A stretch of 14,986 nucleotides of DNA from a virus (Duplodnaviria > Heunggongvirae > Uroviricota > Caudoviricetes), in IMG/VR virus record IMGVR_UViG_2534681835_000019. The stretch is one strand, 5' to 3'. Made by a program: the position numbers and the translations under genes. Shown here piece after piece: positions 3,686 to 6,917 of this stretch. Numbering within the stretch: the stretch's first letter is position 1; the number at the start of each line of letters is the position of its first letter. The notes below the pieces were generated by a model. The model was not told the origin of the DNA and searched no databases. It saw only the letters and a program-made list of their open reading frames with translations.

Positions 3686-3749
3686 ATGTGTTTTTACAAA
3701 ACCATTTGATATCATTGACATTTTTCGCATTGACGACATCAAAACACAT
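3686..3749. repeat. Candidate cosB repeats: inverted repeat ATGTGTTTT (3686..3694) / AAAACACAT (3741..3749) flanking a direct repeat CATTGAC (3713..3719 and 3728..3734)
   Basis: Read directly from the sequence between the Nu1 start and cosN, where lambda has the Nu1-binding R elements. The sequence here differs from lambda cosB. Confidence 0.4.
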
Positions 3750-3859
3750 CGTAAGGTTGTTGTATTTATTTTATTTTCACCTTACTTATCAATTAGATAT
3801 GCCAAACAATTAAACAACAACTCCCCCTCAAAAAATCTCATAAATAGCGAAAACCCGCG

Positions 3860-3871
3860 AGGTCGCCGCCC
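3860..3871 (-). other. cosN cohesive-end site (12-nt GGGCGGCGACCT on the minus strand)
   Basis: Minus-strand sequence ..CCGACAGGTTACG|GGGCGGCGACCT|CGCGGGTTTTCGCTATTTATGA.. matches the recalled lambda right-end/left-end junction almost base for base. It lies about 215 bp upstream of Nu1, as in lambda. Confidence 0.85.
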
Positions 3872-4070
3872 CGTAACCTGTCGGATCGCCGGAAAGGACC
3901 CGTAAAATGATAATAATTATCATCTACATGTCACAACGTGCATCTACGCCATCAAACCACGTCAAATAATCAATTATGACGCAGGTATCGTATTAATTGA
4001 TCTGCATCAAATTAACGTAAAAGCAACTTCAGATAATACAAATCAGCAACACTGAATATGGGGCAACATT

Positions 4071-4295
4071 ATGTCATCAAAGAACAGAACCCGCAGAACA
4101 ACAACCCGCAACATCCGATTTCCAAACCAGATGATTGAACAAATTAACATCGCTCTTGATCTGAAAGGTTCAGGAAATTTTTCAGCGTGGGTTATTGAAG
4201 CCTGCAGAAGAAGATTAATTAATGAAAAATATTCTCAATTTGTACCCAACAAAGACAAACACGACCAGAGCACCTGTTCAGACAGGTTTACTTAA
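4071..4295 (+). CDS. ylcI: DUF3950-type small protein, YlcI-like (ribbon-helix-helix-like)
   Basis: 74 aa, ATG start; MSSKNRTRRTTTRNIRFPNQMIEQINIALDLKGSGNFSAWVIEACRRRL closely resembles recalled E. coli DLP12 YlcI, which also lies next to the Nu1 homolog. Opposite strand to the late genes. Confidence 0.65.
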   Translation: MSSKNRTRRTTTRNIRFPNQMIEQINIALDLKGSGNFSAWVIEACRRRLINEKYSQFVPNKDKHDQSTCSDRFT

Positions 4296-4313
4296 ACGAC
4301 TTATATATGACAC

Positions 4314-4341
4314 AAAAAGCGACCACTAAAGTCGCTTTTTC
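4314..4341. terminator. Bidirectional rho-independent terminator between convergent ylcI-like and perC-like genes
   Basis: AAAAAGCGAC-cactaaa-GTCGCTTTTT: GC-containing stem with an A-tract 5' and a T-tract 3', so it is a hairpin plus U-run on either strand. Confidence 0.7.
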
Positions 4342-4376
4342 TTATGGTAACAGGCAATAACTCTCTCAGATATTTT

Positions 4377-4691
4377 TTAGCATTTTTTTGACCGCGCGTT
4401 TCCGGACGTATTCTGTTCTCCTGTCCCTTTATATCGTCGGAATACCCGCCGCTCTTCAAATCCCATTCCCAACTCAGAATGTAGTCGGTTGACCGCTTGT
4501 TTTATTTCGGTCAGGTTCACCGGTGAAACCGGAGTCCGGCGCGCCTTACGCAAACACTCTGCTCGTTTCTGTGCCGCCACTTTTCTTTTCTGGTCATCAC
4601 TTAGCTGTACCATCACTTTTGCCCATCGTTCAGCTGCTCTCCGGTACAGTCCTTTTTTCTCCAGACATTCTGCCAGGTGATCATGTAGCAT
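4377..4691 (-). CDS. PerC-family (Pch-like) transcriptional activator, putative
   Basis: 104 aa, ATG start with strong SD (GGAGG, 7-nt spacer). The motif LEKKGLYRRAAERWAKVM matches my recollection of the PerC/Pch family signature (..KGLWRRAA.RW..). Family assignment is from memory, not a search. Confidence 0.5.
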   Translation of the reverse strand: MLHDHLAECLEKKGLYRRAAERWAKVMVQLSDDQKRKVAAQKRAECLRKARRTPVSPVNLTEIKQAVNRLHSELGMGFEERRVFRRYKGTGEQNTSGNARSKKC

Positions 4692-5153
4692 AAGTAACCT
4701 CCGTTTATCTACAGACTGCCATCCTGAATTAACCGTCCTTAATAAGACAACAATAAAAAACTAATTATATAAAAACAATAAAAATAATATACAAAAAACT
4801 AAACAACAAAGAAAAGCAAATCATATCTGGCATTTTAATTGAAAGAGCAATTACCGAACAAAAGACGCTGACTATATACTCAAAACCAAACAACAATTCT
4901 GCCAATCAGGTATCATGGCAACACACGGAATTACCATGTTTTTGCCTTCTCTGCCCATACAATACGGGCATATACTTCATACTCTATTGTAATATTTCTA
5001 TCCATGCGCCCCACTCCATTTACCTGTAAATAATATTCAAAATATTTATCACAGAAATCGTTTTTGGCCATGAACTGAGCACACTATAAAGTCCGGAACT
5101 GACTCTTTGTTAAATTACCTTAACGTTACCAGTAACACCTTCGTAACAAAACA

Positions 5154-5621
5154 TCACGGTATACACTGGGTACGGATATATTCCTGTGCTCCTTCCAGTT
5201 GCTTCTGCATTGCCATCAGCCGTTCTCTGAGGATGAAATAATCCCGTTCAGCGGCTTCTGCCAGTCGGGGACCGGTTGCATTATCCACGCCGGAGGTGAT
5301 GGGGGCTTTACGCAAGGAGCCTGGACAGTTGGCGTTGATCCGCAGGCGCTTACGACCAGCGGCAACATCAGCGCGCAGAGTTTCATTTTCAGCTCTCGCA
5401 TCGGCTAATTCCCTCGAGTATCTGGCATCAAGTGCAGCAACATCACGCTGGCGCTGCTGCATATCAGTAATGGTTGCATTTGCCAGCTCCAGCTCACTGA
5501 CTTTTTTATCGCGCTGCTCTTTGTAGGTTATGGCGTTATCACGGTAATGATTCAGCCCCAGACTAAGCGCACCACAGGCCACCAGCAGGGCAATGATGAC
5601 CACGCACAGTACGCGGTTCAT
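5154..5621 (-). CDS. Rz: Spanin inner-membrane subunit (Rz, i-spanin)
   Basis: From ATG 5621: MNRVLCVVIIALLVACGALSLGLNHYRDNAITYKEQRDKK...DVAALDARYSRELADARAENETLRADVAAGRKRL...AERDYFILRERLMAMQKQLEGAQEYI, closely matching recalled lambda Rz. The ORF-track start at 5645 is a TTG extension. Confidence 0.9.
   Translation of the reverse strand: MNRVLCVVIIALLVACGALSLGLNHYRDNAITYKEQRDKKVSELELANATITDMQQRQRDVAALDARYSRELADARAENETLRADVAAGRKRLRINANCPGSLRKAPITSGVDNATGPRLAEAAERDYFILRERLMAMQKQLEGAQEYIRTQCIP
5216..5401 (-). CDS. Rz1: Spanin outer-membrane lipoprotein subunit (Rz1, o-spanin), embedded in Rz in another frame
   Basis: 61 aa, ATG start; MRELKMKLCALMLPLVVSACGSTPT..CVKPPSPPAWIMQPVPDWQKPLNGIIS has a lipobox (VSAC) and proline-rich segment and matches recalled lambda Rz1. 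Confidence 0.85.
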   Translation of the reverse strand: MRELKMKLCALMLPLVVSACGSTPTVQAPCVKPPSPPAWIMQPVPDWQKPLNGIISSSENG

Positions 5622-5622
5622 T

Positions 5623-5724
5623 TCACCACCAGCGTATCTGACCAATGAAATAACCGGAAGCCATAATCACAAACACCAGCCAGATAAGGATGAACTTCCA
5701 GGTGGATAATTTTTCAGCCATCAT
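5623..5724 (-). CDS. Hypothetical 33-aa single-TM peptide between endolysin and Rz
   Basis: Tandem ATG ATG at 5724..5719 preceded by GGGAG (7-nt spacer); MMAEKLSTWKFILIWLVFVIMASGYFIGQIRWW has one hydrophobic helix. Its stop lies 1 nt from the Rz ATG. No homolog recalled. Confidence 0.35.
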   Translation of the reverse strand: MMAEKLSTWKFILIWLVFVIMASGYFIGQIRWW

Positions 5725-6494: not shown

Positions 6495-6917
6495 TTATAT
6501 ACGTCCTTTAAGATAAGTCAGTCCTGGATGAAACCAGTAAGCCGGCACTTTTTTAAAGGGCGGGTTGTCAAACTCACGAAGAAGAGCCTCCCGCACAACT
6601 GCATCCTTGTCCGCACCACTGGCCAGCGCTTCAATCTCAGCAGCTATCTGCAGATATCCCATGCAACGACCAATGCACTTCATCAGCCCCTGCTTTTTAT
6701 TGTTCTTCAGGTAATCAATGGCAAATTCAATGAGCACCTCACTATGCTGGTGCGATGGCGGTGTTACTTTTCCATTTTCTGAGATGGTTATTTTCCCAGC
6801 ATCACCGGATACAACAAAGGATGGCCGGTTACACTCCCATTCCAGCTCACTGAAATTATCATTATGAATACTGAAACACTCTGAGAGATTTCTGCTCATC
6901 GCGGCGTTTTTTTTCAT
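6495..6917 (-). CDS. Hypothetical protein inserted between holin and endolysin
   Basis: 140-aa ATG-initiated ORF with no strong SD and lower GC than its neighbours. Its start sits in an A8 tract and overlaps the 3' end of the upstream small ORF (6862..7011). No confident homolog recalled; E. coli Qin ydfR also sits between holin and lysozyme, but similarity is unverified. Confidence 0.5.
   Translation of the reverse strand: MKKNAAMSRNLSECFSIHNDNFSELEWECNRPSFVVSGDAGKITISENGKVTPPSHQHSEVLIEFAIDYLKNNKKQGLMKCIGRCMGYLQIAAEIEALASGADKDAVVREALLREFDNPPFKKVPAYWFHPGLTYLKGRI

Follow-up and report, generated by a model that had tools for sequence, protein, structure and literature searches.

A pchB-type gene and its AT-rich upstream region as a probable cargo cassette at the right end of an EHEC O111 lambdoid prophage

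Introduction

A stretch of viral DNA of 14,986 nucleotides (Caudoviricetes; IMG/VR record IMGVR_UViG_2534681835_000019), called the window here, carries on its minus strand a short gene that is separated from the Rz spanin gene by almost half a kilobase of AT-rich DNA. The locus raises the question of whether this gene is a virulence regulator carried as cargo or an accessory gene of the phage itself, and whether the AT-rich DNA in front of it belongs to it. An earlier note, written from the letters of the sequence, had proposed a PerC-like regulator in a moron position behind horizontally acquired regulatory DNA of the kind bound by nucleoid proteins. The pch genes are the master activators of the LEE type III secretion system, and therefore a pch gene in a prophage marks that prophage as virulence-relevant. 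For O157 this was established in 2004 and for O111, by comparative genomics, in 2007, and annotation pipelines already annotate these genes.

In the present study, we find that the gene in the window is a copy of the known EHEC regulator pchB with its usual AT-rich upstream region, which as such was already known. Our best explanation is that the region is a pch cassette, a self-contained piece of cargo (about 4206-5161) at the far right end of the genome of an EHEC O111 lambdoid prophage. We give this reading a probability of about 0.93, a figure that covers the whole explanation, namely the cassette, its own upstream control, the action of Pch, the translation lock and late read-through. What is added to the published picture is modest and consists of the split of the upstream region into an invariant and a hypervariable part, a length polymorphism of a poly-T run and a difference at leader position -5.

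Results

The identity, family, anatomy, context, co-occurrence and composition of the pch gene were established from the window and from the genomes compared with it. The coding sequence lies at 4377..4691 on the minus strand, begins with ATG, encodes 104 amino acids followed by a stop codon and is of the pchB type within the PchABC group of the PerC family. In the Pfam profile search, the product scored 148.8 bits against PF06069 (PerC), for which the cut-off is 22.6, and its residues 1-89 aligned with profile positions 1-89 of 90. It has 100% amino-acid identity with PchB of O157:H7 Sakai (ECs_2182), so that the PerC assignment made in the earlier note is borne out by both the profile and the identity. 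The sole nucleotide difference from the Sakai pchB coding sequence is a synonymous change at nt 205, and in each case a single residue sets the product apart from PchA (V6L) and from PchC (V58M). The 315-bp genes pchA, pchB and pchC are separated only by nt 16, 172 and 183 (PMC5931665), and at these positions, where the Sakai genes differ, the window copy is identical to pchB. The exact protein sequence is named 'PchABC family transcriptional regulator' in UniRef, and at least 1000 contigs carry it.

The PerC family is a small one: a search of 1.84 billion proteins gave 84 representatives at 50% identity; the long proteins in that search were HEAT-repeat or compositional matches, not PerC domains, and were rejected. 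A word-indexed search for homologues of the product returned just 16 close relatives. In an alignment of 44 PerC sequences, R17, A19, A20 and W23 were invariant and L10, E11, G14, R18, R22 and C46 were conserved in at least 90%, and every conserved position is found in the window product, including the motif LE..G.(Y/W)RRAA.RW and the conserved cysteine. No solved structure is related to the product by sequence, and its predicted fold, which resembles that of helical-repeat proteins, has no recognisable DNA-binding motif. A single-sequence AlphaFold model of the protein, with a pLDDT of 50.5, was dropped. Residues 7-47 (window 4380-4691, minus strand) bear a faint likeness to the ANR family (NCBIfam NF033650, E 0.046), at 13.6 bits and thus below the cut-off of 32, which is probably a matter of chance. 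ANR proteins are AraC-negative regulators, helical proteins that are likewise small.

The neighbourhood of the gene is that of the end of a lambdoid late operon. Along the minus strand the order is holin, lysozyme, Rz, AT-rich region, pch, a hairpin, the convergent ylcI, cosN, nu1 and terminase A. The Rz spanin gene (5154..5645, minus strand; Pfam Phage_lysis, 158.2 bits), in which Rz1 is embedded (5216-5401), is the last of the late lysis genes. On the other side, a gene of the ylcI/ynfO family (DUF3950) runs convergently with pch at 4071..4295 on the plus strand (PF13132, 66.6 bits; NCBIfam YlcI_YnfO_N), and ylcI was downstream of pch in every locus examined. The location between Rz and cos given for the gene was correct, since the exact lambda cosN sequence GGGCGGCGACCT was found at 3860..3871 on the minus strand with 0 mismatches, in flanks that read like lambda cos, and is followed by nu1 and terminase A. 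It follows from the order Rz-pch-ylcI-cosN that pch lies about 500 bp from the right cohesive end, on the late-operon strand. Between pch and ylcI, folding revealed a hairpin on both strands, composed of an A-run, a GC stem and a T-run (4314..4340), with energies of -17.3 kcal/mol (z -2.3) for the strand that carries pch and -11.9 kcal/mol (z -3.6) for that of ylcI. This hairpin is unchanged in Sakai pchA, pchB and pchC and looks like a bidirectional intrinsic terminator, as far as prediction goes. No terminator-like structure was found by folding after Rz.

The 2-kb stretch around pch has its closest matches in O111:H8 and O111:H- EHEC chromosomes (99.9-100.0% identity as rounded), in which PGAP annotates a 'lysis protein', a 'PerC family transcriptional regulator' and a 'YlcI/YnfO family protein'. 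Even the top hits extend over one base more than the query, and the best identity of the 462-bp upstream region alone was 99.8%, with a one-base difference in length, and therefore no searched genome has the exact sequence of this copy. Searched one at a time against 5,426 complete E. coli genomes, the upstream region and the pch coding sequence both hit the same 688 records, which belong to 673 genomes. The upstream region matched at 1878 places and the coding sequence at 1877, the median number of copies in a genome being 3. In addition, each of the 20 chromosomal loci that were examined showed the arrangement Rz, a gap of about 463 bp, pch, ylcI and nu1. Matches to the Rz and ylcI flanks were found in 4800 genomes, whereas pch was present in only 673. 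Homology with the Stx2a phage EH2201 stops at 4205 and 5162, with 717 bp of unrelated DNA between these points, and DLP12 of K-12 has borD, ybcV and ybcW in the slot from Rz to ylcI. Since related phages hold other cargo in the same slot, the term moron fits the pch cassette, and the variable slot together with the restricted distribution of pch upholds the proposal that the gene is cargo. A tblastn search of 50,697 phage records for PerC homologues (E of 1e-5 or lower) gave nothing save short fragments derived from EDL933; pch-bearing prophages seem to be rarely recovered as free phage. Eleven plasmids have the pch cassette as well. The context was looked at in one of them, the IncFIB conjugative plasmid NZ_CP027549.1 (1907-4784), where IS elements flank a piece of a prophage lysis region (holin, YdfR, Rz1) that contains the cassette.

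The gap between Rz and pch (4692-5153) is 462 bp long and has a GC content of 33.3%, compared with 50.7% for the window and 49.5% for the pch coding sequence. Among all 462-bp windows the GC minimum is at 4690, with only 0.13% equally low, and in the 169 bp nearest pch the GC content falls to 27%. Runs of at least four A or T number 12 in this region (26 per kb versus 12.4 per kb window-wide). The contrast with the phage genes described earlier, in base composition and in A-tracts, is therefore real, the runs being twice as dense. The strong ribosome-binding site noticed before the gene was also found, as the Shine-Dalgarno (SD) sequence GGAGG at 4698..4702 on the minus strand, 6 nt upstream of the ATG and invariant in six aligned alleles. 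No Rfam family was detected in the upstream region, either with the window at the gathering threshold or with 3700-5700 at E up to 5.

When 12 distinct alleles were aligned, the upstream region divided into two parts. The proximal part, about 140 bp and T-rich on the sense strand (4712..4851, minus strand), is a hypervariable tract with 10-25 variable columns per 25, as against 0-5 elsewhere. Two main alleles of the tract occur: Sakai pchA and pchC have one, pchB and the window copy have the other. At one locus the tract carries a 40-bp deletion. The distal part, about 300 bp counted from the Rz stop codon (4852..5153, minus strand), is nearly invariant (0-6 variable columns per 25 in the 12 alleles) and remains so in strain A25, although the pch coding sequence there has only 94% identity. 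Within the proximal tract, a poly-T run (A6 on the plus strand) at 4793..4798 on the minus strand, 102-107 nt upstream of the ATG, is polymorphic in length, being T6 in the window, T7 in Sakai pchB and several other loci and T8 in O111:H- 11128. The prophage of the latter strain is 99.89% identical to the window prophage over 12.7 kb, and in comparison with window 3700-5700 the length of the poly-T run is the sole difference. This variation could be due to slippage or, in any single assembly, to a homopolymer sequencing error.

The upstream region was searched for a promoter and for features of nucleoid-protein binding. In a matrix scan, the best sigma-70 promoter scored 9.2, less than the average top score reached in shuffled sequences (10.2 +/- 1.7), and a separate promoter scan of the region found none. 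As no promoter stood above shuffled sequence, none was assigned to pch; a published transcription start site or promoter map of pch was likewise not found in the accessible literature. A weak candidate, TTGTTG-spacer-TATTTT, has the poly-T run in its spacer, and of the three run lengths only T6 gives the optimal spacer of 17 bp. The 10-mer H-NS nucleation motif TCGATAAATT was not enriched in the window (16 matches, 13.3 +/- 3.6 expected), and the upstream region has one match with two mismatches, at 5107-5116. Curvature was estimated with a wedge model; the end-to-end ratio was lowest near 5045, at 0.887 (z -2.95). This value is among the top 2% of the window and amounts to a moderate predicted curvature, the cos region and ylcI scoring higher. 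No 10-11-bp AA/TT periodicity of the kind given by phased A-tracts was seen in the upstream region, and no H-NS ChIP result for pch upstream regions was present in the accessible papers. As the motif is not enriched, the curvature moderate and the A-tracts unphased, the case for H-NS therefore comes down to AT content, and on this compositional ground binding of the region by H-NS is plausible.

Furthermore, we examined the control of pch after transcription. In pchA, according to the part of a review (PMC7769764) that summarises Melson and Kendall 2019, an anti-SD within the coding sequence sequesters the ribosome-binding site, and the small RNA DicF pairs at this anti-SD and frees the site. 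For the DicF of Sakai Sp4 (76.9 bits in Rfam), duplex energies of the 24 nt at its 5' end predicted a pairing site in the window gene at +79..+105 (4587..4613, minus strand), with -27.6 kcal/mol against -17.9 +/- 2.4 for shuffled seeds. In the minimum-energy fold of pch from -40 to +315, the SD and spacer are paired with +88..+100 (4592-4604, minus strand), a predicted anti-SD that the DicF site overlaps. The anti-SD part of the coding sequence is identical in the window pch and in Sakai pchA, pchB and pchC. These model predictions for the window copy agree with the published description of pchA (PMC7769764). A direct search for a duplex between SD and coding sequence gave -18.9, no better than shuffled sequence (-17.7 +/- 2.6) and ambiguous between +140..+173 and +85..+100, and the assignment of the anti-SD is therefore taken from the fold of the whole mRNA and from the literature. 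Leader position -5 (window 4696) is U in the window copy and pchB and C in pchA and pchC. The U turns a C-G pair into a U.G pair, and the calculated local SD:anti-SD duplex is therefore -10.4 instead of -12.6 kcal/mol. On this modelling, copies of the pchB type may be less tightly locked in translation than those of the pchA type, through this one leader base.

An open reading frame of 46 amino acids (4931..5071, minus strand) lies in the distal block. It matches phrog_2157, of unknown function, with 127.9 bits and is annotated as hypothetical in some genomes. We consider it doubtful as a coding sequence because it has no SD and its allele differences are mostly nonsynonymous.

Discussion

The mechanism of Pch and its control by LrhA and DicF are taken from published papers. 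PchA, PchB and PchC each activate ler::lacZ, and the effect of PchB is the strongest, about eightfold (PMC5931665). The general statement that PerC/Pch homologues activate virulence regulons should thus apply to this locus, as its product is identical to PchB. By this identity with a tested protein, the product of the window gene should activate LEE1/ler as well as further virulence genes of horizontal origin. Activation of the LEE1 promoter by Pch requires that this promoter be under silencing by H-NS, StpA, Hha and YdgT, and Pch lowers the occupancy of H-NS there (PMC4764244). According to the published mechanism, the window protein would sit on H-NS-silenced DNA and cut the occupancy of H-NS and StpA there. 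Several inputs to the pch genes have been described, namely activation of pchA and pchB by LrhA (PMC4456613, PMC13012123) and the action through pch of butyrate via Lrp and LeuO and of NtrC with sigma-S (PMC4456613, PMC13012123, PMC10714755). The occurrence of the gene in an O111 prophage is in line with earlier surveys, in which probes for PchA, B and C were positive in 6 of 6 O111 strains (PMC2323221) and PchABC were found only in LEE-positive strains (PMC6724679).

For the window copy, we propose that the 462-bp AT-rich stretch would be the upstream regulatory region and 5' leader of pch itself, accompanying the gene wherever it goes. LrhA and the other published transcriptional inputs would have to act at this region, and its AT-richness probably exposes pch itself to silencing as well. 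Base pairing between +88..+100 and the SD with its spacer probably holds back the translation of pch, a lock that the prophage-encoded small RNA DicF should be able to undo. Since the late operon and pch share a strand and Rz has no terminator behind it, late-promoter read-through into pch should also be expected upon induction of the prophage.

Other explanations of the locus were weighed against the cassette. The gene might be a conserved lysis or packaging accessory gene of the phage that merely resembles PerC, and its place in the late region, on the late strand and between lysis and packaging genes is what such a gene would have. We give this next to no credence, in view of the absence of pch from most relatives that have Rz and ylcI (673 versus 4800 genomes), its absence from the phage records apart from the EDL933 fragments and the identity of the protein to an experimentally characterised LEE activator (PMC5931665). 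When the structural or packaging role named in the earlier note as the competing possibility was checked, the presence of pch in only 673 of 5,426 E. coli genomes likewise told against it. In another explanation, the AT-rich region is inert filler left by decayed earlier cargo, and pch is expressed only by read-through from the late promoter. The lack of a convincing promoter or terminator between Rz and pch would fit this explanation, as would the varied cargo of the Rz-cos slot in other phages and the late rise of group 1 pch transcripts after SOS induction (PMC5931665). It is nevertheless highly improbable, for pch is needed for LEE expression in uninduced lysogens and responds to LrhA (PMC4456613, PMC13012123, PMC4764244), and pch must therefore have its own promoter; moreover, decaying DNA would not hold 300 bp nearly invariant across serotypes, always in the company of pch.

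An explanation that leaves the cargo status of pch untouched is that the distal 300 bp (4852-5153) form a separate linked element, either the 46-aa gene or a small RNA from the 3' end of the late lysis transcript. The block is near-invariant in the 12 alleles even where the identity of the pch coding sequence goes down to 94%, and the 46-aa frame is open in all alleles, defines phrog_2157 and is annotated in some genomes. Against this stand the ATG without an SD, the mostly nonsynonymous substitutions among alleles (for example R/H, Y/N and W/R, and in pchC also V/I, G/E, R/G and A/V), the absence of a Pfam or NCBIfam match to the frame and of an Rfam match at E up to 5, and the fact that the distal block was never seen without pch. 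We consider a separate element unlikely, and the preferred reading remains that of one cassette in which the whole AT-rich region belongs to pch.

Within the cassette reading, the variation of the proximal tract invites a further suggestion, which we regard as speculative and rather improbable. The hypervariable tract, through poly-T slippage and the swapping of alleles, might work as a tuning knob that resets promoter spacing or the leader and thus pch expression. If that were true, the three pch copies of a strain would form a graded, evolvable dosage set for the master switch of the LEE.

The closest known system is Sakai PchB (ECs_2182) of prophage Sp11, with the same 104-aa protein, the same pchB-type upstream allele and the same neighbours, Rz being upstream and the hairpin and terminase genes downstream. 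The window copy differs from it in having T6 instead of T7 and two single-base changes in the upstream region, and the window prophage differs from Sp11 in matching the O111 serotype and in carrying an IS66-family insertion further upstream. PchA (ECs_1091, Sp4) and PchC (ECs_2737, Sp14) have 103 of 104 residues in common with the window product and the same cassette layout and distal block, but they have the other T-rich allele of about 140 bp and C at leader position -5. The lambdoid layout downstream of the lysis genes is the same at Sp4, Sp11 and Sp14. PerC of EPEC, encoded in the perABC operon of the EAF plasmid, belongs to the same PF06069 family and has the same target, LEE1/ler (PMC4764244, PMC4456613). 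PerC is plasmid-borne, lies in an operon and, under many conditions, is not required for LEE expression; pch, by contrast, is prophage-borne, monocistronic, multi-copy and essential in EHEC (PMC4764244). The borD, ybcV and ybcW genes of K-12 DLP12 share the position between Rz and ylcI/nu1 but are unrelated in sequence and function, and bor is on the opposite strand, whereas pch is on the late strand. In lambda, bor occupies the same Rz-to-cos slot.

Some further features of the surrounding prophage were observed. Between holin and lysozyme, at 6495-6917 on the minus strand, PGAP calls the gene frameshifted in a matching O111 genome (9798-10314 there); in other prophages this position is occupied by a gene of the DUF1327/YdfR family. 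Upstream of the lysis genes lies a gene for a 645-aa SASA-family carbohydrate esterase of the NanS-p type, a 9-O-acetyl sialic acid esterase (7936-9873, minus strand), which is another common cargo gene of EHEC prophages. An Rfam match to the small RNA STnc100 (104.7 bits, gathering 47) lies between the esterase and TerB-like genes at 10011-10183 on the minus strand. The IS66-family element mentioned above (10871-13287, plus strand; tnpA, tnpB and an ISEc47-like transposase according to the annotation of a matching O111 genome) separates the TerB-like gene from a cluster of three consecutive tRNA genes (13496-13744, minus strand; Rfam 56-69 bits). According to the annotation of Sakai Sp4 and Sp14, the position of this trio is the usual ileZ/argN/argO site downstream of Q.
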